DNA of 64,000 nucleotides, from positions 3 to 64,002 of the forward strand of contig CAKKRH010000001.1 of the NCBI GenBank assembly GCA_919902675.1, in the 5' to 3' direction. The notes under the pieces are model-generated. The model saw only the letters and a program-made list of their open reading frames with translations. It was not told the origin of the DNA and searched no databases. How positions within the stretch are numbered: the first letter of the stretch is position 1; each line of letters opens with the position of its first letter. The DNA is from Omnitrophica bacterium GWA2_41_15 (GTDB lineage: Bacteria > Omnitrophota > Gorgyraeia > Gygaellales > UBA12090). A program made the position numbers and the translations under genes. This document shows positions 4,545-58,093 of this stretch, piece after piece.

Positions 4545-5159
4545 ATGGAAGAGATAAAAGTTTTAAGCATAGGGCAGAAGGTTCCGGATTTTGAGATAAA
4601 CGTCTATTTCACCGAGAAAAAAGATTTTGGAAAGATAAGGTTTTCCGATATCTCCAAGAAAGGGAATTGGCTTGTTCTTTTCTTTTATCCGGCCGACTAC
4701 ACCTTTGTCTGCCCAACGGAGCTGGCCGATGCGGGCAGTATATATCCGGAGCTTAAAAAAGAGGGTATTGAGCTGGTTTCTATCTCTACCGATACCCATT
4801 TTGTGCATTATGCCTGGACAGGTTCAGAAAAACTTCTTGCGGATATAAAATATCCGATGGGCTCTGACCCTACCCATAACCTTTCCAGGGCTTTCGGGGT
4901 TTATGATGAGGAATCCGGCCTTTCTTTAAGAGGGACATTTATAATTGATCCCGACGGAAGACTTTTGGCCAGCGAGGTCAATTATTTCCCGGTGGGCAGG
5001 AATGCCGATGAGTTGTTAAGGAAAATCAAGGCCTTTAAGTATGTGCGGGAGAACCCGGCTAATGTTTGCCCGGCTAAATGGAGCCCGGGAAAGAAAACTT
5101 TAACTCCAGGCAAAGACTTAGTCGGCAAGGTCGGTGAAAGACTGGCCGCGGGAGTCTAG
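4545..5159 (+). CDS. peroxiredoxin (AhpC/Prx1-type 2-Cys)
   Basis: FFYPADYTFVCPTELA peroxidatic Cys motif and a C-terminal VCPAKW resolving Cys. Confidence 0.9.
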   Translation: MEEIKVLSIGQKVPDFEINVYFTEKKDFGKIRFSDISKKGNWLVLFFYPADYTFVCPTELADAGSIYPELKKEGIELVSISTDTHFVHYAWTGSEKLLADIKYPMGSDPTHNLSRAFGVYDEESGLSLRGTFIIDPDGRLLASEVNYFPVGRNADELLRKIKAFKYVRENPANVCPAKWSPGKKTLTPGKDLVGKVGERLAAGV

Positions 5160-5162
5160 TTA

Positions 5163-5218
5163 GTTTGCGGTTCACAGTCGACAGTTCAGAGTTGATGGTT
5201 GATAGTTCGCGGATAGCG
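5163..5218. repeat. degenerate heptanucleotide tandem array (8 units, GTTNANN type)
   Basis: GTTTGCG GTTCACA GTCGACA GTTCAGA GTTGATG GTTGATA GTTCGCG GATAGCG read directly after the peroxiredoxin stop. Confidence 0.7.
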
Positions 5219-5255
5219 GCGAAAAGAATTACTATTCGCGCGTGATTTAAATATT

Positions 5256-9505: not shown

Positions 9506-12454
9506 ATGATCCGTAAAATAATTAATTTAATCTTAATCTTGGGGTTGTTGTTCCAGCAGACAGGTTTCAGCTATGCCGCCGGAGAGCTGAACATAGCCAA
9601 TTACCTTAGCCAGGCGCGTAGCGCGATAGTCACGCCGGACCAATTCCGCCCTCCGCAGTTAAGGTTTATCTCCTATGACACTAAAAGCAACGATTTCAAG
9701 CTATTTTTAGACTCCCCAGCTCCTGAACTCCTAAACTCCCAAAACCCTTTGAACTCTCCAACTCCCAAACTTAACGACTCTACCCAGGAACTCTTTAACT
9801 ACTTCCTGACCGGTCTGGCCTTACCCAATGACACCTTCTGGGTGAACCTAAGGCCGGATGCCCCGGATAATATCATAGACCCGCTTTTAGAGAAGACTGA
9901 GATCGGTAAAATCTTCTTAGAGGCCGACCTGCAGTTAAAGAAGGACACCGCAAGCTACACCTCGCCCCAGAACCCGCAAGGCAGACAATATTGGGATAAG
10001 CTGTATAAGAAGGCCGGAGAGTTGTTTGGTAGTGAGAACATCACCATCCCCACCATCACCCGGCCCTGGATAGTGCCTAATGAAGTGATTGTGAGAGAGA
10101 CCGAGGATTCGGCGTATATCTACAAAGCCACCCTCAAAGTGATGCTGGAAGAGGACTATCTAAAAAACTATCAGCAATCCAATCCAAACCACCAACCTCT
10201 AACCTCCAACTATAGTTTCTCCGGCCCCAGGATGAAAGAGTTGAATCAGTATTCCACCCAGCTGATCAAGGAAACTATTATTCCTCAACTGACCAAAGAG
10301 GTCAATTCCTCAAAGAGATACGCCAAGCTAAGGCAGGTCTATTATTCCTTAGTCCTTTCCCGCTGGTTTAAGCAGAAATACAGTCGCGGGTCTGCGGTCT
10401 CGGGTCCCCAGTCAGCAGGACAAGATACTTCTTATGTCAAGCTTATAAATTCCAGGGATTTAACTAATCTTGCTTCCCATGAGCCTTGTGATAAGCAGGC
10501 CTACTTCCAGGCCTACCAGAAGTCCTTTAAAGACGGGGAATATAATCTCCAAGAGACCCTACCCACCCCCATCGGCCAGAGTATCCGCAGTTATGTCAGC
10601 GGAGGGATAGTTGCGAGCCCTATAACTTTTGCAGGGATAAATGCGGAAGAGAATATTGGAGTAACAAAGGCATTGACTGGCCAACCTCCGGCCACTACCG
10701 CCTCGCCGCTGGATATTGACGAGATAGTAAAAAATATTGGCGATATGTTTACAGGAAGAGGACTTAGAACAGCAAACCTTCTTGGCGTGAAATATCCGGA
10801 AAAACTTTCTGAAGAAATAAAAGTACTTATTAAAGACTATTATGCCAACCCCGATGATGCTGTTAAATTTAGCAAGGCAAGTAAGGCATTGAGGGAAGTT
10901 GTTAAAGTAGAAGGATATGATCAAGAGTCTAAGGAAATAATAGAAAAAGGAATAACATGGTCGATAATCGCTACTGGCGAATTAGTGAATTATTATCAGA
11001 AAAGTATCCCTCTGGGCTTAGAACTCATTTCAAAGTTAGAGGGTACATTAGATAAAAAAATTATATTTACAACTCAAAAAGGGCGTGAAGCATATAAAGA
11101 TGAATTTGGTAATGCTCAACGAGAACTTAAAAAGTATGTGGCGGTTGAGAAGGCGGGGGGATTTCTAGAAGAAATTATGGATAGAGGGGAGGACATATAT
11201 ATTTTAAAATATAAATTTATGGAAGCAGAAGCTAAATTTTCCGCCGGCTCGCCGCTGAATGGCGAAGCGTTAGAAGTTGAATTAGTAAAATTACCAAAGA
11301 CCGAAAAACTGCTAAGCGATTTAATCAAAATTTTCTCTAAGGTGGATAAGAGCGCTCAATTGGGACCTCAAATAGCTATTTTAATAGCAGAGATGCTCAC
11401 AGAGAGTGGGGTGACTCCCTTTCCCGGTGAAAGTCCTAATGTATATTTAATGCGCGGAGCTGTTATGAAATCCGTAACCACTTTTTTTTCTAGCAAAAAA
11501 TTATACAATTTATATTCCAAGGATAGATTTTCTATAACAGAAGTCTTAGATAAGATTAAAGAAGGGCTACTGTTAGAAAAGTCGACAAATATTCCAGGGA
11601 GAAAGATATCAGAGGAAACTAAAAAGTACATCATTGCGCTCATAGATTTATATATTGAGGCAGTAGATAATGCAAAAAATGCTATTGAGAAGCAAGGAGA
11701 AACTTCCGTCGCCTCGCCACTGACATTAGAAAAAATGAAAAGTATAGTTTTTGAACAGGCGGGCATTCTTAAGGACCAATATAGTTCTTCCAATAACGAA
11801 AGAAATGAAATTGAAAATATGGTTGCAAATGTCCCGAACATGAGAACAAAAAAAGAATTGAAGGAATTTGTGCTTACTGAGATGATTTCCGGTATAAACA
11901 GTTACATAAAAAAAAGAAATTCAGAAAGCGAAGAGGAATTGCGATCAAGAAACTTTGAGGCTTATAAAGAAATCTATCGTAAAGTAATGTTATTGATTTC
12001 AGTGAAGGAAGCATTGGTATTATTAACTAAAGGATATGCTAATCATTCTGGCGCAGCCTCGCCGGCTAAAGGAGTTTCTTCGTCTCTACAGACAAAACGC
12101 GGCGGTATTGACTTTACCGATCGGGCTTTGCAGATTAAGCTGGAGCGGGTGGGGAGCTTTGCGGATTTAAAAATGATGTTGCCGGGGATAAGCAATGTGG
12201 AGGCAATTGACCTGGATAATGAGTTTAAGCAGATCCAGGCGATGGTTAGCTCTAGCATTCGTCCTTCGGATACCCGGATCCTGGAATTCGCCGCGGCCTG
12301 CTATTACCGGGGCGAGTTTGACTACAGGCTCACCCAGGTAAGCTCCTGTATCAAAGCGGCCCACCTTGCCGATGAGCTCTTGGGCCGGGAAAGCTCGCAG
12401 GCCCTGCGCCTGGCCACCATACTGCCGGACGCGCCGTATGGTGGAAGAATTTGA
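9506..12454 (+). CDS. large secreted protein of unknown function
   Basis: 982-aa ORF with a signal peptide (MIRKIINLILILGLLFQQTGFSYAAG) and GGAGGG RBS. It has low-complexity P/N/S tracts, a K/E-rich AT-rich middle and a GGIDF-containing C-terminal domain. Confidence 0.6.
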   Translation: MIRKIINLILILGLLFQQTGFSYAAGELNIANYLSQARSAIVTPDQFRPPQLRFISYDTKSNDFKLFLDSPAPELLNSQNPLNSPTPKLNDSTQELFNYFLTGLALPNDTFWVNLRPDAPDNIIDPLLEKTEIGKIFLEADLQLKKDTASYTSPQNPQGRQYWDKLYKKAGELFGSENITIPTITRPWIVPNEVIVRETEDSAYIYKATLKVMLEEDYLKNYQQSNPNHQPLTSNYSFSGPRMKELNQYSTQLIKETIIPQLTKEVNSSKRYAKLRQVYYSLVLSRWFKQKYSRGSAVSGPQSAGQDTSYVKLINSRDLTNLASHEPCDKQAYFQAYQKSFKDGEYNLQETLPTPIGQSIRSYVSGGIVASPITFAGINAEENIGVTKALTGQPPATTASPLDIDEIVKNIGDMFTGRGLRTANLLGVKYPEKLSEEIKVLIKDYYANPDDAVKFSKASKALREVVKVEGYDQESKEIIEKGITWSIIATGELVNYYQKSIPLGLELISKLEGTLDKKIIFTTQKGREAYKDEFGNAQRELKKYVAVEKAGGFLEEIMDRGEDIYILKYKFMEAEAKFSAGSPLNGEALEVELVKLPKTEKLLSDLIKIFSKVDKSAQLGPQIAILIAEMLTESGVTPFPGESPNVYLMRGAVMKSVTTFFSSKKLYNLYSKDRFSITEVLDKIKEGLLLEKSTNIPGRKISEETKKYIIALIDLYIEAVDNAKNAIEKQGETSVASPLTLEKMKSIVFEQAGILKDQYSSSNNERNEIENMVANVPNMRTKKELKEFVLTEMISGINSYIKKRNSESEEELRSRNFEAYKEIYRKVMLLISVKEALVLLTKGYANHSGAASPAKGVSSSLQTKRGGIDFTDRALQIKLERVGSFADLKMMLPGISNVEAIDLDNEFKQIQAMVSSSIRPSDTRILEFAAACYYRGEFDYRLTQVSSCIKAAHLADELLGRESSQALRLATILPDAPYGGRI

Positions 12455-13116: not shown

Positions 13117-13143
13117 CTACTATGTTAATGGAGATTATAGATT

Positions 13144-13584
13144 ATGCGGATAACTTATAGAGGGGATTATGCCCTGCGGGCGGTGCTGGATTTGGCAGCG
13201 CATTATAACCAGGGGGTGGTAACTATCCACCAGCTGGCCAAGAGGGCGGACGCCCCGGTGAAGTTTCTGGAGCAGGTGCTCTTGGACCTGAAGAAAGGAG
13301 GGTTTGTTGAGAGTAAGCGCGGCACAAACGGAGGGTATCTTTTATCCCGGCATCCTAAAAATATAAAGATGGGCGAGGTGGTCAGGTTCATAGATGGGCC
13401 GATTGAGCCGATTGCCTGTGTTGAGGAGCGCTATTCCGGCTGTAAGAGCATGCCGGCGTGTGTGTTAAGGAAGGTGTGCAAGGAGGTGGCCGTGGCTACC
13501 TCTAATATAGTGGATAAGGTAACATTTGAGGATTTAGCCAGCCAGGCCAAAACAGGGAAAAAGGAAGCGGTGTATTCTATTTAA
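13144..13584 (+). CDS. Rrf2 family transcriptional regulator (IscR/CymR-like, Cys-cluster type)
   Basis: MRITYRGDYALRAVLDLA wHTH N-terminus, GGYLLSR, and a CVEERYSGCKSMPAC cysteine triad. Confidence 0.85.
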   Translation: MRITYRGDYALRAVLDLAAHYNQGVVTIHQLAKRADAPVKFLEQVLLDLKKGGFVESKRGTNGGYLLSRHPKNIKMGEVVRFIDGPIEPIACVEERYSGCKSMPACVLRKVCKEVAVATSNIVDKVTFEDLASQAKTGKKEAVYSI

Positions 13585-15875: not shown

Positions 15876-15903
15876 CCAAAATCAAAATGCGAAAATCAAA
15901 ATT
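15876..15903. repeat. heptanucleotide array (CAAAATN x4)
   Basis: CCAAAAT CAAAATG CGAAAAT CAAAATT spanning the permease/JAMM junction and the first JAMM codons. Confidence 0.55.
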
Positions 15904-16309: not shown

Positions 16310-17326
16310 ATGTATAAATTAAAGAGACTACGCGTGAGTAAAGCAATGAGAGATTTGACGGCTCAAGTCAACTTGGGCATTCACAATCTGGTTATGCCTT
16401 ATTTTGTCCGCGAGGGCAAAAAGATAAGACAGCCCATAGAGGCGATGCCCGGGGTTTTTCGTTTTTCGCGGGATGAATTATTGAAAGAAGTTGAACAGTT
16501 AAGGCTTGCCGGTGTCCATTCGCTTATCCTCTTTGGCCTGCCCGGGGAAAAAGATGATGCCGGTCTAAAGGCCTATTCTGAAAACGGGGTTATTCAAAAA
16601 GCGGTCCGGGCCTTAAAGAAAAATTTTGGCGATGAACTGGCAATAATTACCGATGTCTGTTTGTGCGGCTATACTAAGCATGGGCATTGCGGCATCTTAA
16701 AAAGGCAAAAGGCAAAAGGCAAAAGGCAAAAAGAATTTTCTATTGATAATGATGAGACGCTAAAGGTTTTGGTTAAGATTGCCCTTTCTCACGCCCGGGC
16801 TGGGGCGGATATTGTGGCTCCCAGCAGTATGATGGACGGCCAGGTTCAGGCCATTCGCCAAGAGCTGGATAAAAATGGTTTTAGCGAAACCGCGATTATG
16901 GGCTATTCCGCTAAGTTTGCCTCTAACTTTTACGGGCCTTTCAGGGAGGCCGCCGGTTCCGGGATGAAATTCGGTGATCGAAAAAGCTATCAAATGGACT
17001 TTAGAAATTCGGATGAGGCTTTAAGGGAAATTGAGGCGGATATTCAGGAAGGCGCGGATATACTGATGGTCAAGCCGGCGCTGGCCTATCTGGATATAAT
17101 CGCTAAAGCCAAAGAAAGATTCGCCGTTCCTTTAGCCGCGTTTAATGTCAGCGGGGAGTATAGTATGGTAAAAACATACTGTAAGTCCACAGTCCACAGT
17201 CCACAGTCCACAGGAATAGAAAAAGAGCTGGCTTTGGAGATTTTGACCGCGATAAAAAGAGCCGGCGCAGACATAATTATTACTTATTACGCGAAAGAAG
17301 CGGCTGGATGGCTGAAGAAAACCTAA
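16310..17326 (+). CDS. hemB: porphobilinogen synthase (delta-aminolevulinate dehydratase)
   Basis: CLCGYTKHGHCG zinc site, ADIVAPSSMMDGQV, VKPA active-site Lys, NVSGEYSM, KRAGADIIITYYA. Confidence 0.9.
   Translation: MYKLKRLRVSKAMRDLTAQVNLGIHNLVMPYFVREGKKIRQPIEAMPGVFRFSRDELLKEVEQLRLAGVHSLILFGLPGEKDDAGLKAYSENGVIQKAVRALKKNFGDELAIITDVCLCGYTKHGHCGILKRQKAKGKRQKEFSIDNDETLKVLVKIALSHARAGADIVAPSSMMDGQVQAIRQELDKNGFSETAIMGYSAKFASNFYGPFREAAGSGMKFGDRKSYQMDFRNSDEALREIEADIQEGADILMVKPALAYLDIIAKAKERFAVPLAAFNVSGEYSMVKTYCKSTVHSPQSTGIEKELALEILTAIKRAGADIIITYYAKEAAGWLKKT
16704..16731 (+). repeat. (GGCAAAA)x4 heptanucleotide array inside hemB
   Basis: GGC recurs at 16704, 16711, 16718 and 16725. The array is translated as KRQKAKGKRQK directly after the HGHCGIL zinc-site motif. 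Confidence 0.85.
17184..17212 (+). repeat. (AGTCCAC)x4 heptanucleotide array inside hemB
   Basis: GTCCACA at 17185, 17192, 17199 and 17206. The array is translated as KSTVHSPQST between NVSGEYSMVK and EKELALEIL. Confidence 0.85.
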
Positions 17327-18546
17327 CAAACTACAAATTACAAACTACAAACTACCACCTTTTTCGCGAAGCAAAAAAGGTTATCCCCGGCGGAGTAAAT
17401 AGCCCGGTGCGCTCGTTTAAGGCGGTGGGAGGCGCTCCGGTTTTTATCAAAAAGGCCTCCGGCTCAAAATTTCTCGCTGAAGACGGTAAAACCTATATAG
17501 ATTACTGTATGTCCTGGGGGGCGTTATTATTAGGCCATGCTCACTCTGAGGTTGTATCCGGGGTAAAAAAGGCGGTTGAAAAAGGCACCAGCTACGGCGC
17601 GGCTACCAAGGCCGAGACCGAATTCGCCAAGATTATTACTCGAGCCATTCCTTCCTGCGAGCTGGCGCGTTTGGTCTCATCAGGTACTGAAGCGGCGATG
17701 TCGGCAATCCGGGTTGCCCGGGGTTATACCAGGAAAAATAAAATCATTAAGTTTAAGGAATGTTATCACGGCCACAGCGATTATTTCTTATCGGGAAAAA
17801 GCGCCGGCATCCCGGAAAATATAAGCCGGGATGTCTATAGTCTTGATTATAATAACTTAGAGCAAGCGGAAGAAGCCTTAGAAAAAGATAAGGATATTGC
17901 CTGCGTGATTGTTGAACCGATCGCGGCCAATACCGGTTTGATCCTGCCTTTAAAAAGTTTCTTAGAAGGCCTGCGCAAGCTGACCTTAAAGCATAAAGCC
18001 CTGCTTATTTTTGATGAGGTGATTACCGGCTTTCGTTTTTGTTTTGGAGGCGTCCAGAATATCTTTGGGATTATCCCGGATTTGACCTGTTTAGGCAAGA
18101 TTATTGGCGGGGGTTTTCCTTTGGCCTGCTTTGGGGGAAAAAAAGAAATTATGCGCCACCTTGCTCCACTGGGAAGCGTTTATCAGGCCGGCACATTATC
18201 CGGAAACCCGGTCGCGGTCCAGGCCGGGCTTAAAACTTTAGAAATTATCAAAAAGCCCGGTTTTTATAAAAGGCTCAATGAAAAAGCCGGGTCTTTTTAT
18301 AAAAAAATAGACGGAATAATTGAAAATAAGAAAACGAATATTGTCTTAAACCGTTTTGGGGCGATGTTTCATTTCAGTTTTAAAGATAAAAAACAGTTCA
18401 GCGGATTTTTTCATAATCTATTAGCCCAAGGGATTTATCTTTCGCCGGCAGGCGATGAGGTGTGTTTTGTCTCGGCGGCGCATACGGATAAAGATTTTGA
18501 AATAACTTTAAAAGCATTGAATCATTTAAAAGAGAGGTTGGTATGA
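17308..18546 (+). CDS. hemL: glutamate-1-semialdehyde 2,1-aminomutase
   Basis: LFREAKKVIPGGVNSPVRSF, FDEVITGFR, LGKIIGGGFP (PLP Lys). Confidence 0.9.
   Translation: MAEENLTNYKLQTTNYHLFREAKKVIPGGVNSPVRSFKAVGGAPVFIKKASGSKFLAEDGKTYIDYCMSWGALLLGHAHSEVVSGVKKAVEKGTSYGAATKAETEFAKIITRAIPSCELARLVSSGTEAAMSAIRVARGYTRKNKIIKFKECYHGHSDYFLSGKSAGIPENISRDVYSLDYNNLEQAEEALEKDKDIACVIVEPIAANTGLILPLKSFLEGLRKLTLKHKALLIFDEVITGFRFCFGGVQNIFGIIPDLTCLGKIIGGGFPLACFGGKKEIMRHLAPLGSVYQAGTLSGNPVAVQAGLKTLEIIKKPGFYKRLNEKAGSFYKKIDGIIENKKTNIVLNRFGAMFHFSFKDKKQFSGFFHNLLAQGIYLSPAGDEVCFVSAAHTDKDFEITLKALNHLKERLV
17327..17354 (+). repeat. (CAAAYTA)x4 heptanucleotide array at hemB stop / hemL N-terminus
   Basis: CAAACTA CAAATTA CAAACTA CAAACTA, translated as the NLTNYKLQTTNYH extension of HemL. 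Confidence 0.8.
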
Positions 18547-18804: not shown

Positions 18805-19737
18805 ATGCCATTTTCAGATAAAGTTGCCAATAATGTCTTAGAGCTTATTTGTAATACCCCGATTATCCGGCTTAACCGCTTGCCGGATAAGGATTCGGCG
18901 GTTATCTATGCCAAGTTAGAACAGTTTAATCCCGGAGGCTCGGTTAAAGACCGGATATGTTTGTCTATGATCCAGGAAGCTGAAAAAGAAGGCCTGCTTA
19001 AAAGCGGCTCAACCATAATTGAGCCGACCTCCGGTAACACCGGCATAGGCCTGGCAATGGTGGGAGCGGTAAAGGGTTGCCGGGTAATTCTGACTATGCC
19101 TGAGACTATGTCTATAGAGAGGATATATATCCTGAAATCTTTGGGCGCGGAAGTAGTGCTTACCCCGGGGATAGAGGGAATGAGCGGGGCAATCAAAAAG
19201 GCGGAGGAGCTTCTGAAGAATACCCCGAATAGCTTTATGCCGCAGCAATTTAAGAACAAGGCTAATCCCAAAATACACCGCGAAACCACCGCCAGGGAAA
19301 TCTTGAATGTTCTGGGAAATAAAATAGACGCCTTTGTATGCGGCGTAGGCACCGGCGGGACTATTACCGGTGTGGGGGAGGCCTTAAAAGAAAAGAATCC
19401 TAGGATAAGAGTTATCGCGGTTGAACCGGAGGCCTCGGCGGTCCTTTCCGGAGAAAAGCCGGGCGCGCATAAAATCCAGGGGATAGGCGCGGGATTTGTT
19501 CCTGAGATATTAAACCGCGAAGTTATTGACCGGATTATCAAGGTTTCAGATAACGATGCTTTTAAGACGGCCAGAAGATTAGCCAAAGAAGAAGGATTAT
19601 TCGTGGGGTTATCCAGCGGGGCCGCGGCCTGGGCCGCCTTAAAAATAGCCCAGGACTTAGGAAAAAATAAAACCGTAGTTACCATATTTCCGGATACCGG
19701 GGAAAGATACGGGAGTATGCAGCAATACTTTGAGTGA
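18805..19737 (+). CDS. cysK: cysteine synthase (O-acetylserine/O-phosphoserine sulfhydrylase, CysK/CysM family)
   Basis: NPGGSVKDR PLP-Lys motif, TSGNTG, GVGTGGTITG. Confidence 0.9.
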   Translation: MPFSDKVANNVLELICNTPIIRLNRLPDKDSAVIYAKLEQFNPGGSVKDRICLSMIQEAEKEGLLKSGSTIIEPTSGNTGIGLAMVGAVKGCRVILTMPETMSIERIYILKSLGAEVVLTPGIEGMSGAIKKAEELLKNTPNSFMPQQFKNKANPKIHRETTAREILNVLGNKIDAFVCGVGTGGTITGVGEALKEKNPRIRVIAVEPEASAVLSGEKPGAHKIQGIGAGFVPEILNREVIDRIIKVSDNDAFKTARRLAKEEGLFVGLSSGAAAWAALKIAQDLGKNKTVVTIFPDTGERYGSMQQYFE

Positions 19738-19744
19738 GAATAAA

Positions 19745-22102
19745 ATGTTTAAACTGCCTAACGAAGTAAAAGAGAGCATAAAAAATTACCGTAGTTCTTT
19801 GGAAGACCTGCTTAGCGGAAAAATCAGCCCGGCGCGCTTTACCGGCGTGCGGGTGCCCTGGGGGCTTTACAGCCATCGCGGGGGCAAGGTCTTTATGAGC
19901 CGCGTCCGGATTCCCGCAGGGCAGGTCAGCGCCGAACAGCTTAAGGCCATCGCGCGCTGCGCCCGCGCCTATGGGAATGGGATCACTCATATCACCACCA
20001 GGCAGGATATCCAAATCCATGAAGTAAAGATTGAAGATACGATTAAGGTTATTGAGTATCTGAAGGATTTTGAGCTTTCTCCCCGGGGCGGAGGAAGCAA
20101 TACCGTGAGGAATGTTACCGCTTGTGTTTTCTCCGGGATATGTCCGGATGAGGTCTTTGATACCGCCGGATACGCCATTTCTCTCACTGAATACCTTCTG
20201 GCCCAGGACAGTTCCTTTAACCTGCCGCGTAAATTCAAGGTTGCTTTCTCCGGATGCGCTAAGGACTGCGCGGCGATAGTGGTTAATGATGTCGGACTCT
20301 TAGCTAAAATAAAAGACGGGCAAAAAGGTTTTCAGGTTTTTGTCGGCGGAGGAATGGGCGCGGAGTCGCTTACCGGGCATCTCTTGGAGGAGTTTATCTC
20401 CGAGGCTGAGTTAGGTTATTGCGTCAGCGCCGTCAAAAATGTGTATTCCAAGCAAGGCGACCGCCGGAATAAGCACCATAACCGCTTAAGGTTTTTGATT
20501 AAAGATAACGGTATGGATGTTTTTAAGAAATGGTATCAGGAGGAGTTAAGAGTATTGAAAGAGGCCGAATACATCAACTTGAGGAATATTGAACCGGCGT
20601 CTCCTCAAGTCTCTGGCGGGGATATCCCTAAGGTGGAGGATAAAGACTTTAATGAATTTATAAAATACAATCTTATTGAACAGAAACAAAGCGGTTTAGT
20701 GATTGTGGAATTAAGGATTCCCCGGGGTGACCTTCCCGCGGATAGGCTGGAGAAAATCGCCGCGTTGGAAAATTATTTTCCCGGCCTGGAATACCGGGCT
20801 TCCCAGAATCAAAATCTTTGCCTTTGTAATATCCGAAAGTCCGATACCCATGAGTTGTTTTTAAAGCTGAAAGATATTTTAGAGGATTTTATCTATCCGG
20901 ACAGCCTCCAGGATGTGGTCTGCTGTAAGGGCGCGCTTACCTGTAATCTCGGCCTATGTAATTCACCGGCTTTGACCGAGGAGCTGGAGAAGCTGATAAG
21001 AGATAATTTTATCGCAAAGGCAGTGCTGAAAAAGATAAATATCAAGATAAACGGCTGTCCTAATGCCTGCGGCCAGCATCCCCTGGGGCTTATTTCCCTG
21101 CACGGAATGGTGCGCCGGGTAGGCGGGCATCCGGTTCCCTTTTATAAACTGCTTTTAGGAGGCAGGAAAGGCATTACCCTGACCCGCCTGGCTAAAGACA
21201 CCAAACTGATGATACCGGCTAAGAACTTGTTATTGTTCTTTAAGGACTTCCTGGATAAAATAAACAGCCAGATTGATGAAAATACGGATATCTATAGTTA
21301 TTTTGATGAACAGGCGGAAAGCGCGGCCAGAGAGATTACCCAGCGCTACGGCTATGTTCCGGCTTATTCGGAGAATAAGGATTATTACATTGATTGGGGC
21401 AGAAGCGAAGAGTTTTCCCTGGAGGGTATGGGGCCGGGTGAGTGCGGCTCAGGGGTTATGGATATGATTGATACGGATTTAAGCGATGCCAAAATTCATC
21501 TGGAAGCCGCGCGCGAAGATAATTATTCTGTCCAGGAAATAAAGAAGGCTTTATTCTTCAGCGCCCGGGCCCTTTTGGTGGTGCGCGGAGCTGACCCCCG
21601 GGATGAATTAAGCGCCTTAAATGATTTTGTGGAAAAGTTTGTCCGGGCAGGATTGGCTGATGGCAAATTTTCCCGGCTTAAAGAAGTATATGTCTCTTTA
21701 TCTGAAGGCCTAAGCCCTAAAGAGAAGGAAGAGAAATTTTTATACGCCCAGGAATATCTGGAACACATAAAAGAAGTATATAAAAATATGGACCCCCAGT
21801 TTAATTTTCCTAAATATTCCGCCCCTGTCTCTCAACAGGAGGTAAAAGTAGAAGTTGAGCCATCGGAAGTTAAATCTCCGGTTTTGGATTTAAAGGGGGT
21901 ACGTTGCCCGATGAATTATGTCCAGGCGAAATTATACTTAGAGAATATCAAGATCGGCGAGACGGTTGAGATATGTTTAGACGAGGGTGAGCCGATCCAG
22001 AATGTCCCGGTCAGCCTTAAAAACGACGGCCAGGAGATCTTAGGGATTACAAGAATAGAGAATTATTATAAGGTGCTGGTAAAAAAATTAGTTGATAGTT
22101 GA
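19745..22102 (+). CDS. assimilatory-type sulfite reductase (NIR_SIR siroheme/4Fe-4S) fused to C-terminal TusA/SirA-like domain
   Basis: TACVFSGIC...SGCAKDC and CCKGALTCNLGLC...NGCPNAC cluster motifs. C-terminal LDLKGVRCPMNYVQAKL...GETVEICLDEGEP is TusA-like. ATG 19745 is preferred over track GTG 19730. Confidence 0.75.
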   Translation: MFKLPNEVKESIKNYRSSLEDLLSGKISPARFTGVRVPWGLYSHRGGKVFMSRVRIPAGQVSAEQLKAIARCARAYGNGITHITTRQDIQIHEVKIEDTIKVIEYLKDFELSPRGGGSNTVRNVTACVFSGICPDEVFDTAGYAISLTEYLLAQDSSFNLPRKFKVAFSGCAKDCAAIVVNDVGLLAKIKDGQKGFQVFVGGGMGAESLTGHLLEEFISEAELGYCVSAVKNVYSKQGDRRNKHHNRLRFLIKDNGMDVFKKWYQEELRVLKEAEYINLRNIEPASPQVSGGDIPKVEDKDFNEFIKYNLIEQKQSGLVIVELRIPRGDLPADRLEKIAALENYFPGLEYRASQNQNLCLCNIRKSDTHELFLKLKDILEDFIYPDSLQDVVCCKGALTCNLGLCNSPALTEELEKLIRDNFIAKAVLKKINIKINGCPNACGQHPLGLISLHGMVRRVGGHPVPFYKLLLGGRKGITLTRLAKDTKLMIPAKNLLLFFKDFLDKINSQIDENTDIYSYFDEQAESAAREITQRYGYVPAYSENKDYYIDWGRSEEFSLEGMGPGECGSGVMDMIDTDLSDAKIHLEAAREDNYSVQEIKKALFFSARALLVVRGADPRDELSALNDFVEKFVRAGLADGKFSRLKEVYVSLSEGLSPKEKEEKFLYAQEYLEHIKEVYKNMDPQFNFPKYSAPVSQQEVKVEVEPSEVKSPVLDLKGVRCPMNYVQAKLYLENIKIGETVEICLDEGEPIQNVPVSLKNDGQEILGITRIENYYKVLVKKLVDS

Positions 22103-22117
22103 TAGTTTATGGTTTAT
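22090..22117. repeat. heptanucleotide array (GTTGATA GTTGATA GTTTATG GTTTATA)
   Basis: Read directly across the sulfite reductase stop codon. Confidence 0.75.
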
Positions 22118-22144
22118 AGCAAACCTAAACTAAAGGAGCAGGCT

Positions 22145-23419
22145 ATGAGCTATGTGTTAGGTTTAAAATGCCGGGAATGTGGCCGGGAATACCCTAAGGA
22201 TGTTTTGTTTGTCTGCGAGTATTGCTTTGGCTCTTTAGAAGTAAATTATGATTACAAAGCTATCAAGAAAAACCTGACCAAAGAAACTCTCTTGGGCCGT
22301 CCCAAAAATATGTGGCGCTATAAGGAGCTCCTGCCCATTGATAAAGACCCGGCAGTCGGGCTAGATTCAGGATATACTCCTTTGATTAAGGCGAATAATT
22401 TGGCCAGGGTTTTGGGAGTGAGAGAGCTTTATCTCAAAGACGATTCCGTAAATCATCCAACCTTGTCTTTTAAAGACAGGGTGGTCTCCGTGGCTATCTC
22501 CAAGGCCAGGGAATTTGGTTTTGACACCGTGGCCTGCGCCTCAACCGGCAATCTGGCTAATTCCGTCTCGGCCCAGGCCGCATCCTGCGGGCTAAAGGCT
22601 TATATTTTTATTCCGGCTGACCTGGAAACAGGTAAGGTGGTAGCCTCGCAGATTTATAATCCCAACCTTATCGGTATTGAAGGAAACTATGATGAGGTTA
22701 ACCGTCTTTGTTCGGAGATTGCCTCCAGATACCGCTGGGCCTTTGTGAACATCAATATCCGTCCCTTTTACGCCGAGGGCTCCAAGTCAATGGGGTATGA
22801 GATTGCCGAGCAATTGGATTGGAAATTGCCCAAACATATTGTGGTGCCGTCAGCAGGCGGCTCGTTGATTACTAAGCTTTGGAAGAGCTTTAAGGAATTG
22901 AAAGAGCTGGGATTTCTGGAGAAGGCGGATACTAAGGTTTACTGCGCCCAGGGCCAGGGCTGCGCCCCGATAGTTACCGCGATCAAGGAAAAGTCCGAGG
23001 TAATTCGGCCGGTTAAGCCCAAGACTATTGCCAAGAGCCTGGCGATCGGAAATCCCGCCGACGGATATTATGCCGTAGACACGGTGAGAAAATCCGGCGG
23101 TTTTGCTGAGGAGGCCTCTGACGAAGAAATTGTAGAGGCAATAAAATTATTAGCCAAAACCGAAGGAATTTTCACCGAGACCGCCGGAGGGGTTACTTTG
23201 GCGGCAGCCAAGAAGCTAATCGAGCAGGGGATTATTCCTAAAGACGAGTCAATTGTCATCTGCATTACCGGAAACGGCCTTAAGACCCTGGAAGTGGTTA
23301 CTAAGTCTTTGCCCAGGCTGGTGAAAATCAAACCAAACTTAGCCAGTTTTGAAGAGCATATTAAAAACGGCGCGCACCAGAAGATTTCCGAGAACAAGGT
23401 TATTGAGTATTATATTTAA
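22145..23419 (+). CDS. threonine synthase-like PLP enzyme with N-terminal zinc ribbon (MetM-like candidate)
   Basis: CRECG...CEYC zinc ribbon, HPTLSFKDR PLP-Lys motif, ASTGNLANS. ATG 22145 behind AAGGAG is preferred over track start 22109, which lies in the heptad array. Confidence 0.8.
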   Translation: MSYVLGLKCRECGREYPKDVLFVCEYCFGSLEVNYDYKAIKKNLTKETLLGRPKNMWRYKELLPIDKDPAVGLDSGYTPLIKANNLARVLGVRELYLKDDSVNHPTLSFKDRVVSVAISKAREFGFDTVACASTGNLANSVSAQAASCGLKAYIFIPADLETGKVVASQIYNPNLIGIEGNYDEVNRLCSEIASRYRWAFVNINIRPFYAEGSKSMGYEIAEQLDWKLPKHIVVPSAGGSLITKLWKSFKELKELGFLEKADTKVYCAQGQGCAPIVTAIKEKSEVIRPVKPKTIAKSLAIGNPADGYYAVDTVRKSGGFAEEASDEEIVEAIKLLAKTEGIFTETAGGVTLAAAKKLIEQGIIPKDESIVICITGNGLKTLEVVTKSLPRLVKIKPNLASFEEHIKNGAHQKISENKVIEYYI

Positions 23420-32053: not shown

Positions 32054-32095
32054 TAGATTTTGCGTTTTTTAAGGTTGTATATTATAATATTTCCT

Positions 32096-33496
32096 ATGAG
32101 AAAGCAGATAGTTCAAAAGCTAAGCCGCTATTTTAATTCCCTCAAGGCGCGAGAAATAAGGGACCTTTCGCTGGCCCTTAATCAGGAAATCCGGCGCCTG
32201 AATATCCACTATTTGAATGACTCAGGAAGCAAGCGCGACATCAAATTGGTGCTTCGGCCCTGGTTTATTAAACCTAAAGAGCTTGCCTTCTTTCACCGGC
32301 TTATCTATGCCTTTAAGGCGGCTAACCATAAGCTTTTCGCGCTGTATCTTGCCGATGCGAGGATCCGGGAAATAATGCCTTTACGGCGCCAGGAATGGAA
32401 GTGGTTTCAGCTGATTAATAAGCGCAGGCTCCAGAGGCATCAGGTGGTTTTTGGCAGGTGGGATACCAATGTCTCTTTTGATGAGCGGGAGAATATTACC
32501 GATATAAAATTCTTGGAAACCAACACCGTGGGAATCGGTGGGATTCATTATATCCCCGTGGTTTCTGAGGCCATAAAGAAGCTTTTAAAAACAGGCTTTG
32601 AGAAAACCATACATCCGTATTCTTTGAGATTTCAGGCAGACCCCAGGCAGCTTTTGGCCGAAGAAATCAAGCTTCATGCCCGGCGCATCGGCAGAAAGGG
32701 CCTTAATGTGGCATTCCTGGAAAACCGCGACTACGCCGGAGGCACGGTTGAAATCCCGGAGCTAAGCAAATATTTCCTAAAGTTAGGAATTAACGCCCTT
32801 GCCGCTGACCCCCGCCAGTTACACCTTAAAGGAAAGGAAATTTATTGCCGCGATACAAGAATAGACATAATGTATCGGGATTCGGAACTGCAGGAGTTAA
32901 TTGATATAGAAAGAAAAGGCCACAATATGGAGGTGCTTAAGCAGGCCTTTATCAATAATCAGGTTATTTCCTCCATAGAAGGAGAGCTTGACCACAAGAG
33001 CGGATTTGAGATATTCAGCTCTCCGGAATTTTCGCGCCTTTTTACCGCTCAGGAAAGGGCCTTGTTTAAAAAATACATCCCCTGGACTCGCCTTTTAAAA
33101 GATAGGAAAACCACGGATACCCAGTCGCGCATAGTTGACCTTGTGCCTTATGTGATAAAGCATAAAGACGCCCTGACTATTAAGCCCAACCGCGCCTACG
33201 GCGGGAAAGGGGTGGTTATCGGCCACACGGTGAGCAAGAATAAATGGCAGGAGTATATCGTCAAGGCCTTATCCGCCAGGGATGAGTATGTAGCGCAGAG
33301 CTTTGTCAACATCCGCGAAGAAACATTTCCCTGGTTTACTCCGGATGGCCGCGTAGCCTTTGATAAGTTTTATTCGGTTTCAGGTTTTGTGGTCAATCAT
33401 CATTCCACCGCGGTCTTAGGCAGGTTCTCTAAAGAGATGGTAGTAAACGTGGCCCGTAAAGGCGGGATTATCCCGACATTGGTGCTTGAGGCATGA
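32096..33496 (+). CDS. ATP-grasp-like protein (circularly permuted ATP-grasp / glutathionylspermidine-synthase-like), putative amide ligase
   Basis: FGRWDTNVSF...IKFLETNTVGIGG resembles the R-x-D...LE-x-N core of pre-ATP-grasp ligases. C-terminal KPNRAYGGKGVVIG is also consistent. This is a remembered motif only. Confidence 0.4.
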   Translation: MRKQIVQKLSRYFNSLKAREIRDLSLALNQEIRRLNIHYLNDSGSKRDIKLVLRPWFIKPKELAFFHRLIYAFKAANHKLFALYLADARIREIMPLRRQEWKWFQLINKRRLQRHQVVFGRWDTNVSFDERENITDIKFLETNTVGIGGIHYIPVVSEAIKKLLKTGFEKTIHPYSLRFQADPRQLLAEEIKLHARRIGRKGLNVAFLENRDYAGGTVEIPELSKYFLKLGINALAADPRQLHLKGKEIYCRDTRIDIMYRDSELQELIDIERKGHNMEVLKQAFINNQVISSIEGELDHKSGFEIFSSPEFSRLFTAQERALFKKYIPWTRLLKDRKTTDTQSRIVDLVPYVIKHKDALTIKPNRAYGGKGVVIGHTVSKNKWQEYIVKALSARDEYVAQSFVNIREETFPWFTPDGRVAFDKFYSVSGFVVNHHSTAVLGRFSKEMVVNVARKGGIIPTLVLEA

Positions 33497-33559: not shown

Positions 33560-33640
33560 TTGACAAATCTGAATAAATATTGTATATTTTAATACAGATA
33601 GTTGTATAATAACATACAATAGATTGTATATATAAATTTG
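33560..33640 (+). promoter_or_regulatory. sigma70-like promoter followed by TTGTATA repeats
   Basis: TTGACA 33560-33565, 17-nt spacer, TATATT 33583-33588. TTGTATA occurs three times downstream, plus the inverted ATACAA. Confidence 0.45.
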
Positions 33641-33648: not shown

Positions 33649-34221
33649 ATGGAATACCGCATTGATAAAGATGGGCTGTTGAATAGGTTGAGCGCCTGGA
33701 ATGATTATCTTAAAAGAAGGGTGCGCCTAATTGCCTGCGGAGGCACCGCCCTTACTCTGCTTAATATAAAGGATTCTACTAAAGATATTGATCTGCTTGT
33801 CCCTGATATCAAGGAATACGAATATTTAGTAAAGGTTTTAAAACAATTAGGTCATAAGCCAGTCAGCGGCTGGGGTTTGAGCCGGGATGACGGATTTATC
33901 TTTGACTTATTCAGAGGCAAGGTAATCCATACTACGGAGTTATTGGATTCGCCGTTAAAGAAGGATAAGTATATCCCAATTAAGGAGTTTAGCCGTATTT
34001 ATTTAGGCGTCTTGAATTGCTATGATTTAATCATCAGTAAATTATTCAGGGCAACAGCGGTTGACCTTGAAGATTGCCTGCTTTTATTTAAAAACAGGCA
34101 TAGGGAAATAAGCCTGGACTATTTAGAGAGCCGCTTCTATGAAACTGCTTCTTATGATGTTTCTGAGGATAGGGTTATTAAAAACTGGAAGCATTTCTTG
34201 AAACTTATTAAAAAAGAGTAA
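33649..34221 (+). CDS. nucleotidyltransferase-fold protein (DUF6036-like)
   Basis: IACGGTALTLLNIKDSTKDIDLLV resembles a GG...DxD NTase-fold motif. Confidence 0.45.
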   Translation: MEYRIDKDGLLNRLSAWNDYLKRRVRLIACGGTALTLLNIKDSTKDIDLLVPDIKEYEYLVKVLKQLGHKPVSGWGLSRDDGFIFDLFRGKVIHTTELLDSPLKKDKYIPIKEFSRIYLGVLNCYDLIISKLFRATAVDLEDCLLLFKNRHREISLDYLESRFYETASYDVSEDRVIKNWKHFLKLIKKE

Positions 34222-43086: not shown

Positions 43087-43090
43087 GAAA

Positions 43091-44401
43091 ATGCAAAAGT
43101 CAAAAGTCAAAAGTCAAAATGGCAAGTCAAAAATAAAAATCGGTAAAACAATTCTAACGTGGGGCCTATTAGTGTGGGCATTAATGCTTGGAGTTGGAAT
43201 TAACGCCGTTTATCCGCAAGATGAGGTATTGAATTTAGATATGCTGATCAAGGAGGCCGAGGCCAATAATCCCGAAATCCTGGCCGCCAAGAAGCGCTTG
43301 GAGGCGGCTAAGGCCCGCATTCCCCAGGCCAAGGCCTGGGAAGACCCTAAAGTCGGTATCTCTGTAGAAAAGATACCCAAGGGAAGCCTAAAATTAGACC
43401 GGACCATGGCTGAGGACAGGATGCTTTCGGTGTCTCAAGCCTTTCCTTTATCCGGGAGGCTTTCTCTGAAAGGTAAGATTGCGGTGGTTGAATCCCAGAT
43501 ATCCGCCAGCGAATATAAAGGAATAGAGCTTGAGGTCATTAATGAAGTGAAAAAGGCCTATTATAGCCTGTTTCTGAATTATGAGGAGAGCGAGTTAAAG
43601 AAAAACAGCGTCCAACTGCTTGAAGATTCCTCCCGGGTCGCCGAAGCCAAGTACGGCTTGGGCAAGCTTGGGCAGGGTGAGGTTCTGAAACTGCATTTAG
43701 AGATAGCCAGGATGAATAATGATATAGCCAGCCTTAAAGAGGAAAGAAAGGCCCAAGAGACTGAATTAAATACCTTGTTAAACCGGCCCGCGCAGGCGCC
43801 CCTGGGATTGTTTGTCTTAGAAGAAGACGCATCCTTTAAGGCGGATATGGAGGCCTTTTATCAGCTGGCCCTTAAAAACCAGCCGGAACTATCAACCTTT
43901 GCTTATGCCATAGAGAAAAATCAATACGCTAAGAAGCTGGCTAAGAGGAGCGCATTCCCGGATTTGATGGCCGAGATAGGCTTGAGGGGGATAACTGCCG
44001 GGGGCATAGGCCCCTGGGATTTGGCTATGGCAATAAGCTTGCCTTTTTGGTTCTGGACCAAACAGCGCTATGAGATAAAAGAGGCGGTATTTAATCTGGA
44101 GGAGGCTAAGAGCGCCTATGAGGCGATGCGCAATAAGATGTTTGCCCAGGTGAGGGATATTGTCAGTAAAATAGAGATTGCCAAAAATAAAATGAACCTC
44201 TCTAAAACCAATCTTATGCCCATATTAGAAAGTTCTATCTCTTCATCCCTGGCCGCCTTTAGGGCGGGAAGATATGATTTTATGATGCTGATAGATAACG
44301 AAAGGATGTATATTGAGGCCAAGTTGGACTATTACCGCGCGCTGGCGGAATATCACATCAATCTGGCGGACTTGGAAAGGGCTACAGGAGGAAAAATATG
44401 A
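43091..44401 (+). CDS. TolC/CusC-type outer membrane efflux protein
   Basis: 436 aa with duplicated OEP-type coiled-coil repeats. The N-terminus MQKSKVKSQNGKSK is encoded by a (CAAAAGT)n heptad array at 43094-43121. Confidence 0.8.
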   Translation: MQKSKVKSQNGKSKIKIGKTILTWGLLVWALMLGVGINAVYPQDEVLNLDMLIKEAEANNPEILAAKKRLEAAKARIPQAKAWEDPKVGISVEKIPKGSLKLDRTMAEDRMLSVSQAFPLSGRLSLKGKIAVVESQISASEYKGIELEVINEVKKAYYSLFLNYEESELKKNSVQLLEDSSRVAEAKYGLGKLGQGEVLKLHLEIARMNNDIASLKEERKAQETELNTLLNRPAQAPLGLFVLEEDASFKADMEAFYQLALKNQPELSTFAYAIEKNQYAKKLAKRSAFPDLMAEIGLRGITAGGIGPWDLAMAISLPFWFWTKQRYEIKEAVFNLEEAKSAYEAMRNKMFAQVRDIVSKIEIAKNKMNLSKTNLMPILESSISSSLAAFRAGRYDFMMLIDNERMYIEAKLDYYRALAEYHINLADLERATGGKI

Positions 44402-56855: not shown

Positions 56856-56874
56856 GCCTTTGAAATCCGAAAAG

Positions 56875-56892
56875 ATTATTCTAAATATCTCC
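56875..56892 (+). repeat. 18-bp direct repeat identical to the copA 5' end (left copy)
   Basis: ATTATTCTAAATATCTCC, identical to 62932-62949. The flanks are also similar (GAAA.. before, CC.GGGA after). Confidence 0.75.
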
Positions 56893-56900
56893 TGGGAAAA

Positions 56901-57004
56901 GATAGGGTCAAACCTCAAAACTCCAAAATAGCCATTAACGCTGGAATTGGTAAGAGATTAGATAAATTGTAAGTTTGAGGTTTGACCTTATCAGTGACCC
57001 TATC
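56901..57004. other. nested inverted repeats adjacent to the left direct repeat
   Basis: GATAGGGTCA (56901-10) / TGACCCTATC (56995-57004), and GGTCAAACCTCAAA (56906-19) / TTTGAGGTTTGACC (56974-87). Confidence 0.6.
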
Positions 57005-57144
57005 AACATTCTATGAAATCCCAGACGCGAAGAATATCTATAACAATATGAGCAATAAAGAGATATTAAAAAAGAAGGTTTTTGTCCGTACTTTCGGCTG
57101 GCCAGTGGCAGGATTATAGTAATGCGATGAGGAGCTTGGCCGAG

Positions 57145-58090: not shown

Positions 58091-58093
58091 AAT

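Follow-up and report, generated by a model that had tools for sequence, protein, structure and literature searches.

How does a bacterium outside the cyanobacteria come to carry short tandem arrays of heptanucleotides, nearly every one built on a unit of its own, at the borders of its genes and even inside them? Could arrays of unrelated sequence form a family, and do they serve the genes that they adjoin? These questions are raised by a stretch of 64,000 nucleotides, here called the window, from Omnitrophica bacterium GWA2_41_15 (assembly GCA_919902675.1, contig CAKKRH010000001.1, positions 3 to 64,002, forward strand). A preliminary description had listed ten arrays with a strict 7-nt period and likened them to the short tandemly repeated repetitive (STRR) elements of heterocystous cyanobacteria; all ten were recovered, exactly or within a few bases. 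With somewhat better than even confidence, we regard the solitary arrays as STRR-type heptanucleotide repeats that were made in place, filtered by translation, stable once fixed and probably functionless. Two features are notable: a rule by which one local heptamer becomes four through a gain of three units, and a consistent inverted bracket of 7- to 8-nt arrays around genes for four-helix-bundle proteins. The evidence comes from these 64 kb and from scattered loci of relatives, designated here by L numbers.

Results

Period 7 predominates in the window

Tandem periods from 4 to 14 were scanned in a sliding window of 21 self-comparisons at thresholds of at least 80% and at least 70% match. Markov shuffles of the window defined the chance level, and Tandem Repeats Finder (TRF) was additionally run at a low threshold. 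At 80% or better the window holds nine arrays of period 7, the other periods from 4 to 13 giving none or one and the shuffles 0.0; period 14 gives four, all of them heptamer arrays seen at doubled period. At 70% or better, 14 arrays of period 7 compare with 0.7 expected, and the remaining periods, 14 excepted, give 0–4. Period-7 calls by TRF start at 16700, 17184, 17326, 22089, 43094, 44427, 57152, 57209, 57600, 57780 and 57815. Two-copy heptamer tandems show no excess (6 observed, 5.5 expected). The window, whose GC content is 45%, thus exhibits tandem iteration beyond the expectation from composition with period 7 predominant, the hallmark of long simple sequence repeats (SSRs) of 5–11 nt.

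As an outside control we used the hemB loci of 80 other prokaryotes (1.35 Mb), obtained in a GTDB genome scan with a HemB alignment whose patterns proved so unspecific that most matches were to distant taxa. These loci contain 14 period-7 arrays, a density of 0.10 per 10 kb; the window, at the strict threshold, reaches 1.4 per 10 kb, a difference of about 14-fold. In close relatives (67–89% HemB identity, 61 kb) there are six arrays of period 7, eight of period 8 and none of any other period, the excess of period 8 being confined to one subclade of the related Omnitrophota loci. The specificity for period 7 that had been proposed is therefore borne out within the 64 kb and in related Omnitrophota loci; the strict 7-nt period holds in the window and fails in those relatives that use period 8. 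The host is indeed not cyanobacterial: the nearest homologs of its HemB, 3'-5' exonuclease and peroxiredoxin all belong to metagenome-assembled genomes (MAGs) of Candidatus Omnitrophota, and groundwater-metagenome contigs, one of them 2.155 Mb long, match the window at 99.4–99.7% identity. Several of these contigs have names starting with 'Hain_H52', which we take to denote the Hainich groundwater site.

Might the arrays be low complexity that arose by chance, or artefacts of assembly? The two weak arrays at 15876 and 10183 could be chance at the 70% threshold, but the stricter scan finds its nine arrays at period 7 only and none in the shuffles, the control loci give the low density just described, and reading frames are kept through the arrays. 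Because the same sequence occurs in independent short- and long-read assemblies, the arrays are not products of assembly. We consider this explanation effectively excluded, its probability being next to nil.

The arrays found are the following (forward strand, +, except where no strand applies).

5163–5218, no strand: degenerate array GTTNNNN, 8 units, starting 4 nt past the peroxiredoxin stop (gene 4545–5159)
10183–10212, +: AACCTCC, 3.4 units, weak, within a 982-aa open reading frame (ORF), 9506–12454
15876–15903, +: CAAAAT(N), weak, bridging the gap from the ABC-permease stop (15873) to the opening codons of the JAB gene, which starts at 15887
16700–16731, +: GGCAAAA, 4.6 units, in frame in hemB (16310–17326), encoding KRQKAKGKRQK directly after the HGHCG zinc motif
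17184–17213, +: AGTCCAC, 4.3 units, in frame in hemB near the C-terminus, encoding KSTVHSPQST
17326–17355, +: CAAACTA, 4.3 units, from the hemB stop codon, read as the HemL N-terminal extension LTNYKLQTTNY
22089–22119, +: AGTTGAT, 4.4 units, the second giving the TGA stop of the sulfite/nitrite-reductase-TusA gene (19730–22102), the remainder intergenic, upstream of thrC
43088–43119, +: CAAAAGT, 3.7–4.6 units, start of a TolC-like OEP gene (43091–44401)
44427–44473, +: TTTCTCA, about 6 units, T-rich, in a CusB/HlyD-like gene (44398–45648)
about 57153–57239, +: inverted pair, AGGCKAT then CCTATAG units, a hairpin of about 30 bp ending 1 nt before the ribosome-binding site (RBS) of the four-helix-bundle gene
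about 57596–57629, +: ATAGGCG, 3.7 units, last residues RIGDRQ and TAG stop of the four-helix-bundle gene, able to pair with 57671–57712
57671–57712, +: reverse-orientation array CCTATAG / CCTATCG ..., downstream of the four-helix-bundle gene, the inverted-repeat partner
57780–57855, +: second inverted pair (AGGCAAT AGGCGAT ... / ... CCTATCG CCTATTG), a hairpin followed by TTTTTT, terminator-like

The arrays at 44427–44473 (TTTCTCA), 10183–10212 (AACCTCC) and 57671–57712 are additions to the ten. Typical arrays have 4.1–4.6 units, in agreement with the earlier estimate of about four, and five lie within or overlap ORFs. Their total length is 30–32 nt at period 7 and at period 8 alike. Nine different canonical units occur in the window, and only AACTATC (at 5163 and 22090) and AGGCGAT (in the cassette described below) recur. 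The arrays had been called a family; the term is apt for a process and not for a sequence, the units being unrelated and each apparently amplified from a local heptamer.

Perfect or almost so are the arrays starting at 16700, 17184, 17326, 22089 and 43094 and the ATAGGCG/CCTATAG arrays at 57152–57239, 57595–57629 and 57780–57849. Three arrays are less regular or weaker than the rest. At 5163–5218 only GTT is constant in seven to eight units while the four other positions vary; TRF is silent here and the period scan finds the array at 70%. The array at 10183–10212 is translated as ...NPNHQPLTSNY... in an ORF without a family match. For 15876, TRF calls period 6 with indels, and the array overlaps partly conserved coding sequence; it is old and partly coding, because the JAB N-terminus MRKSKLW is conserved in L087, with about three similar units there.

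One local heptamer becomes four

Where do the units come from? In an alignment of 30 Omnitrophota HemB proteins (311–393 aa), the only hypervariable places are the two sites at which the window's hemB carries arrays; some of these proteins are free of inserts, and in others the inserted peptides are different and repeat every seven residues. At site 1, the array-free relative L084 (80% aa identity) reads ATCTTAAAAA GGCAAAA AGAATTTTCT, with GGCAAAA once, and the window has the same flanks around four GGCAAAA, exactly 21 nt more (48 versus 27 nt). At site 2, AGTCGTC occurs once in L084 and AGTCCAC four times in the window, again exactly 21 nt more (45 versus 24 nt). The C-terminus of the sulfite/nitrite-reductase-TusA protein follows suit, with a single GGTTGAT in L087 (...KKLVD) and four AGTTGAT-type units in the window. 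In other lineages the hemB loops hold AGTCCAC, AGAAACC, AGAGAAC or, with a length of 8 nt, AGTCACAA and AGTCACCA. These octamers, too, stand in four copies (32 nt), and site 1 there exceeds that of array-free L084 by 24 nt, in keeping with a gain of three units.

These alignments indicate that the arrays were amplified from a heptamer or octamer already at the site. A single mobile sequence family is excluded by the nine unrelated units together with the single-copy local seeds in relatives. Intragenic arrays consist of one plus three, that is four, units because only a gain of three stop-free units (21 nt) keeps the frame. A burst, rather than stepwise growth, is suggested because two-copy tandems show no excess and array length is 30–32 nt at both periods.

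The hemB loops also contain inserts of other kinds: a 42-nt tandem duplication at site 1 of L093, a 33-nt insert with the palindrome CCGCCAAGGCGG twice at site 2 of L094, and, in the hemB of protein P0002, an insert of about 45 nt nested within the GGCAAAA array.

Placement is compatible with translation

Of 13 arrays, eight are no more than 30 nt from an ORF boundary; the expectation is 2.05, and none of 5000 random placements reaches eight. The reported clustering at gene boundaries is accordingly correct overall and wrong for 16704 and 17184, which are in-frame inserts inside hemB. Every intragenic unit is free of stops in three frames, and the stop-containing AGTTGAT, ATAGGCG and GTTGATA are found at or after ORF ends; this rule on stops within units fits every case.

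The three translated examples named in the preliminary description, the HemL N-terminus, the TolC-like signal peptide and the C-terminus of the four-helix-bundle protein with its stop codon, are confirmed. HemB with both inserts is a full-length porphobilinogen synthase (451 bits), and in the solved ALAD 5lzl alignment gaps stand opposite both. The profile match of HemL begins at residue 13–16, and the HemL proteins of L084 and L087 are shorter by 10–14 aa. In the TolC-like signal peptide (MQKSKVKSQNGKSK) the positively charged n-region is encoded by the CAAAAGT array, and the TTTCTCA array encodes a hydrophobic signal or anchor segment, SLSFLISNFSFFIPYSF, of the CusB/HlyD-like protein. The extension MVYSKPK... 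at 22109 is probably untranslated, because the conserved start of thrC is at 22145.

Does this placement betray cis-regulatory sites, heptamers bound by a regulator of the S1, CspA or CsrA type or by a ring-shaped protein that tunes translation or gene coupling? Such a regulator was proposed for the TAACTGA repeats of Beggiatoaceae (MacGregor 2015, PMC4679880), and besides this precedent the idea can draw on the strong concentration at ORF boundaries, on arrays right at the start codons of the JAB gene, hemL, tolC and the four-helix-bundle gene, and on degenerate arrays that hold three to four fixed positions like a spaced motif (GTT at 5163; AACC and CGAAT in L096). However, at least nine unrelated units in 64 kb mean that no single sequence-specific binder fits; arrays also occur in the middle of genes, in hemB and in cobA-hemD of L096; and L084, L189, L191, L192 and L193 have the same gene boundaries without arrays. 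Purifying selection alone would equally predict enrichment at boundaries. We therefore judge a regulatory role improbable.

Arrays are stable within the population

The comparison of array lengths between strains that had been suggested was carried out, and copy numbers are uniform in all assemblies compared. Two short-read contigs of the same species (L002, L003) show no indel over 11.6 and 13.5 kb, and the CAAACTA array of hemL differs between strains by four substitutions with its unit number unchanged. Among the eight contigs with the four-helix-bundle gene, the seven short-read ones are identical through the ATAGGCG arrays, and the eighth, from long reads, has nine small changes that we take to be read errors. 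No copy-number difference exists among 11 other contigs of the population (three plus eight), and the CusB array keeps its copy number and length in L190 at 86% nucleotide identity. Length variation between strains by slipped-strand mispairing, as expected of SSRs, is thus not seen; between species, arrays are present or absent.

Absence is common among relatives, with no array in L084 (21 kb), L189 (20.5 kb) or L191 (15 kb). The 5163 array is missing in L192 and L193, whose peroxiredoxins are 96% and 93% identical, and L192 shares with the window the order of peroxiredoxin stop, spacer, hairpin and next gene. The array at 5163 is hence young yet degenerate, because it lacks a counterpart in close relatives and only GTT is fixed.

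Contingency loci, in which frequent slippage switches genes on and off as in pathogens, would be expected to look otherwise. The repeats at the 5' ends of envelope genes (TolC-like, CusB-like) do resemble those of phase-variable genes, and heptamer number does differ among strains of Coxiella (PMC4990558). Yet L002, L003 and eight contigs from other samples differ by substitutions only, without an array indel, and the CusB array is constant over the divergence given above; the genes affected are mostly housekeeping ones (hemB, hemL, the thrC neighbourhood), and a gain of one or two units in hemB would inactivate the enzyme. The arrays are not phase-variation loci, because copy numbers are identical across assemblies of the population; this reading is very unlikely and, like that of an artefact, effectively excluded.

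Strain differences (99.5% identity) are bunched in short tracts at 17260–17357, 13126–13329 and 20338–20434, which look like recombination patches. The first of them covers the 3' end of hemB, the start of hemL and the CAAACTA array, the HemB C-terminus reading YAKEAAGWLKKT in one version and WAKDAAKWLKNL in the other.

A four-helix-bundle gene in a bracket of inverted arrays

The arrays at 57.1–57.9 kb form a class of their own around one gene.

57252–57617, +: four-helix-bundle protein gene, 121 aa, bAvd-like, TIGR02436 / PF05635 23S_rRNA_IVP; RBS GGAG at 57240

Its product matches PF05635 with 124.6 bits and NCBIfam TIGR02436 with 121.6 bits. An Avd protein of a diversity-generating retroelement is excluded, since that profile scores 42 bits against a cut-off of 80 and no reverse-transcriptase gene is among the neighbouring genes called. 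No homolog was found in the phage collection. The genes on either side are those of the exonuclease and of AbiEi.

Strong folds are limited to these inverted ATAGGCG arrays. The upstream hairpin reaches −48.3 kcal/mol (z −5.6); that at 57780–57855 reaches −44 kcal/mol (z −9.0) and is followed by six T, though a simple terminator scan gives no flag. The array at 57596–57629 can pair with the reversed array 50 nt downstream of the gene. A further fold among the inverted arrays has z −2.8. Solitary arrays, where tested, fold weakly, neither 5155–5225 (z −0.29) nor 22080–22150 (z −2.0) giving a convincing RNA fold. The inverted repeats of the cassette (I1–I10) provide the stem of a cassette like the intervening sequences (IVS) of rRNA; the window contains no Rfam family, rRNA included, and hence no insertion in helix 25 or 45 of 23S rRNA.

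How general is the bracket? A single-sequence phmmer search gave four four-helix-bundle matches and an iterated hidden Markov model eight ORFs. In the loci under comparison the iterated model identified five further four-helix-bundle genes or remnants, all flanked by 7- or 8-nt arrays; the downstream array is usually the reverse complement of the upstream one, the unit is specific to the locus, and one host has 68% GC. A tblastn search of 72,556 plasmids returned 22 records, 18 of them cyanobacterial (15 from Nostocales), plus Riemerella, and a high-GC query added Gemmatirosa. All 13 plasmid genes fetched are bracketed by arrays, so that the bracket of 7- to 8-nt arrays is present at 19 of 19 four-helix-bundle genes (the window, L095, L096, L100, L139, L145 and L176–L188), a set that is partly dependent in that L095 and L096 represent a single locus and L187 is the ortholog of L188. 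These genes come from 11 cyanobacterial plasmids, from Riemerella and Gemmatirosa, and from metagenome contigs that are Omnitrophota-like. Examples are as follows.

Nostoc edaphicum: GTAGGGA, 8 units, upstream; TCCCTAC, 5 units, downstream
Anabaena 90: CAGGTGA, 10 units, upstream; CTGTCAC, 4 units, downstream
N. punctiforme: GGGTGTR upstream; CYACACC downstream
Gemmatirosa (75% GC): period 8, GGGCAGGA upstream; CTCCTGCC downstream
Pseudanabaena: arrays direct, not inverted

Within 170 nt of the four-helix-bundle genes array density is 4.56 per kb, versus 0.20 per kb in the rest of those loci. The homologous cassettes of Nostoc PCC 7120 and Stanieria resemble each other over a stretch that opens about 40 nt ahead of the start codon and closes with the downstream array, past which they are unrelated. 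Because similarity stops at this array, the arrays travel with the gene. Several cassettes lie within operons, between cas6 and cas4, between cas10 and cmr3, and between the genes for the ribonucleotide reductase subunits.

Could all arrays, then, mark the termini or footprints of a small mobile system based on this cassette, which would bring arrays along at its borders on insertion or create them there, the solitary arrays and ORF-less hairpins being remnants left by loss of the ORF or non-autonomous derivatives resembling miniature inverted-repeat transposable elements? The complete bracketing, with left and right units that match each other and differ by locus, speaks for it, as do the end of Nostoc PCC 7120/Stanieria similarity at the downstream array, the location of cassettes in the two cas operons and in a 6-kb variable island of the window, and the recurrence of units at unrelated sites. 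In L095, L096 and L100 a cassette fills precisely the junction of hemB and hemL, its right array forming the HemL N-terminus, and at this very junction the window carries a solitary array; in the Coxiella IVS, moreover, heptamers in strain-variable number precede an S23p ORF (PMC4990558). On the other hand, the hemB arrays are exact 21-nt gains on a heptamer that is single in relatives, and a 500-nt cassette within hemB is impossible. The window has one four-helix-bundle gene in 64 kb and nine solitary arrays, the cassettes have no linked transposase, reverse transcriptase or recombinase, inverted flanks differ from target-site duplications, and in the Fibrobacter locus L058 six arrays occur with no cassette in 21 kb. 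We find this reading unlikely, though it is the main rival of the explanation that we favour.

A broader proposal is that 7- to 8-nt arrays are integral to widespread, undescribed selfish cassettes of very small size, in which an Avd-like TIGR02436 protein is encoded within a stem of inverted arrays, and that such cassettes produce, or land in, STRR-type repeats, be these from cyanobacteria, Bacteroidota, Omnitrophota or other groups. We put it forward tentatively, as something to entertain rather than to expect. Were it true, the oligomeric four-helix-bundle protein might bind heptamers in RNA or DNA, and solitary arrays and ORF-less hairpins would be by-products.

The variable island around the cassette

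The cassette of the window lies in a variable island of about 6 kb (56856–62925) that extends from the 3'-5' exonuclease gene to the gene of an HMA P-type ATPase and contains, besides the cassette, an AbiEi/NTP_transf_8 (AbiEii-like) pair and a truncated RadC-like ORF. In L189 the exonuclease gene adjoins the ATPase gene, and in L190 and L191 an AAA_14/DUF4143 gene takes this place. The comparison thus shows a 6-kb variable island instead of a clean cassette-sized indel, and because the difference is the whole island, an empty-site comparison does not fix the borders of the window's cassette. Short-read assemblies break on both sides of the cassette, at about 56805 and 57772, leaving contigs of about 1 kb with the four-helix-bundle gene (L171–L175); these breaks suggest further copies of the flanking array sequences in other parts of the genome.

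Other repeats were noted in and around the island. Directly ahead of the AbiEi-like gene (58094), at 57960–58090, AAATGTCCACTA / ATGGACATC occurs in direct and inverted copies, which overlap with a promoter-like TTGACT-16-TAAAAT (58007–58034) and look like an antitoxin operator. A perfect tandem 28-nt duplication (AAATATCAAAAGACGCTCTATATAATTC) at 60796–60852, at the 3' end of the N-terminal RadC-like fragment (60402–60848), could represent the scar of an insertion or an att-like site on the edge of the island. At 62622–62800, in the 200-nt stretch before the HMA ATPase gene (about 62926), a 9-nt array, CAAACGGGA in 4.4 units, accompanies a 28-nt repeat, GCCAAACGTGCGGGCTGCCAAGTCCGGC in 2.5 units. 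Outside the island, an AT-rich 22-nt repeat of 2.6 units at 33579–33636, with TTGTATA / TACAAT palindromes, lies between ORFs 32060–33496 and 33649–34221 and is possibly an operator.

Arrays in other lineages

Arrays of this kind extend to relatives of very different composition. In a low-GC clade (L095, L096, L100; 28–30% GC) we found arrays in frame within cobA-hemD, a HemL N-terminus encoded by an array (MNPKTHNPKLITYN) and inverted intergenic arrays, L096 alone (21 kb) having eight arrays of period 7; array-rich loci are also present at 59–68% GC. The Fibrobacter locus (sp. UBA4309) carries long heptamer arrays at 892–965 and 17328–17501, of the ATCCATT / GATAATT type and up to about 20 units, some in inverted pairs, and has no four-helix-bundle gene within 21 kb.

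Discussion

Which process could produce arrays so alike in size and so unlike in sequence? In the explanation that we favour, a heptamer at the site would be copied repeatedly during replication or repair, in an apparent burst, to about four units (30–32 nt); the source of the burst, we infer, may be reiterated slippage in a single replication or repair event. Translational selection would then sort the products. Arrays would be kept between genes, at ORF ends, within signal peptides and within the surface loops of enzymes; of the units at ORF ends, those with stops would supply or follow the stop codon and the stop-free ones would yield N-terminal extensions, and survival within a gene would require the gain of three copies of a stop-free unit. 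Once fixed, the arrays are stable, would be translated and do not act as switches, and the solitary ones would probably have no function of their own and be neutral. The inverted ATAGGCG arrays, which form long hairpins around the TIGR02436 gene, are a second class, a cassette resembling an IVS. By analogy with the intervening sequences of rRNA, their stems would most likely act in RNA as structures for processing or termination, and might thereby keep the inserted gene from disturbing its neighbours.

Several observations weigh against this explanation. Simple slippage by one unit does not predict three units gained at once from one copy, and intermediates of hemB with one or two extra units would be frameshifts. 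ACAGTCC, which is at hemB site 2 in the window, is at site 1 in L089 and L092, and AACTATC occurs not just at 5163 and 22090 but in the HemB of distant lineages; such recurrence at unrelated sites hints at a sequence preference or at transfer. Seeds with five of seven matches (hemB site 2, HemL) could be chance, and intergenic arrays are too few to separate a mode of about four units from the rule of the reading frame. The array at 5163 seems to fit badly with recent perfect amplification followed by slow decay. Finally, the sample is one window and scattered loci.

What do the arrays of the window contribute? Heptanucleotide repeats, described piecemeal over 35 years in cyanobacteria, Beggiatoaceae, Xanthomonas and Geobacter without a mechanism, are extended to Omnitrophota. 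Relatives with and without arrays supply before-and-after pairs in which one local heptamer turns into four, and the origin of STRRs becomes a testable question of burst-like copying. The arrays also account for the strange N-terminal extensions, the inserts in loops and the varying protein lengths that annotations of Omnitrophota MAGs show. Should the bracket hold genome-wide, a very abundant protein family of unknown function (S23p/Avd-like) would be tied to repeats.

Comparison with known repeat systems

Do the arrays belong to a repeat family already described? None of the published units (TAACTGA; STRR1–3, CCCCAGT, TTGGTCA and CAACAGT; GGGACCG; GGGAATC; GACAGAT) is ever tandem in the window, and its arrays stand outside the sequence families of the STRR, Geobacter, TAACTGA and GGGAATC repeats. 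The class that fits best is that of long heptanucleotide SSRs. According to Mrazek 2007, as cited in PMC4679880 and PMC4692102, most of the genomes surveyed have more heptanucleotides than any other class of long SSR, and for long SSRs of 5–11 nt an origin by polymerase slippage, no specific function and occurrence in free-living bacteria were proposed. Unlike those, the window arrays within genes are three-unit gains, without length polymorphism and without a continuum through two and three copies.

In Geobacter metallireducens, four heptanucleotides (GGGACCG) in tandem make up an element that occurs 49 times, both within genes and between them (Aklujkar 2009, PMC2700814). Arrays of four heptamers in both kinds of place are found in the window as well, but the Geobacter elements have one consensus at 49 sites and are read as a regulatory RNA family, whereas the window units differ and are local. 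TAACTGA is present in two to six copies in marine Beggiatoaceae, some cyanobacteria and Bacteroidetes, concentrated just before start codons or across stop codons (MacGregor 2015, PMC4679880). Shared with the window are an orientation limited by stop codons in the unit and translation of some repeats at protein ends; the difference is that one unit serves the whole genome there, while TAACTGA occurs in the window seven times singly and never in tandem. That paper reports neither inserts in enzyme loops nor a link to four-helix-bundle genes. The GGGAATC arrays of Xanthomonas are intergenic, with 70–75 convergent inverted pairs able to form stem-loops, and are conserved in position and different in length between species (Rehm 2015, PMC4692102). 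They differ from ours in a single G-rich, quadruplex-forming unit and in having no translated arrays.

The cassette invites comparison with the IVS of 23S rRNA. In Coxiella, two to three tandem heptamers, their number varying between strains, lie directly before the S23p ORF (PMC4990558). As in the rRNA IVS of Coxiella and Leptospira, a PF05635 ORF lies in a long stem of flanking inverted repeats; in contrast to them, the cassette of the window is located between protein-coding genes, outside 23S rRNA. In our incomplete coverage of the literature the Coxiella paper was the only one to bring together four-helix-bundle or S23 genes and heptamers, and nothing was found on heptanucleotide repeats in Omnitrophota; the papers on heptamers in Xanthomonas/Nostoc and in Beggiatoa do not mention the family. 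The link between arrays and four-helix-bundle genes thus appears to be undescribed in the searchable literature.

How close, finally, are the arrays to the STRRs of Calothrix, Nostoc and Anabaena? The host is Candidatus Omnitrophota and not a heterocystous cyanobacterium, nearly every locus in the window has its own unit, where STRRs draw on a small set of units, each reused at many loci, and many arrays are translated in or at the ends of housekeeping genes. In common with STRRs, however, the window has 7-nt units arranged head to tail, many short dispersed arrays (13–14 in 64 kb), mostly at gene borders, and their occurrence singly or as inverted pairs. The resemblance first noticed in period, size and placement has therefore gained support, and it goes further than had been supposed: on plasmids of Nostoc, Calothrix, Anabaena and other Nostocales, STRR-type arrays bracket four-helix-bundle (S23p) genes in the same inverted manner as the arrays at 57.1–57.9 kb of the window.

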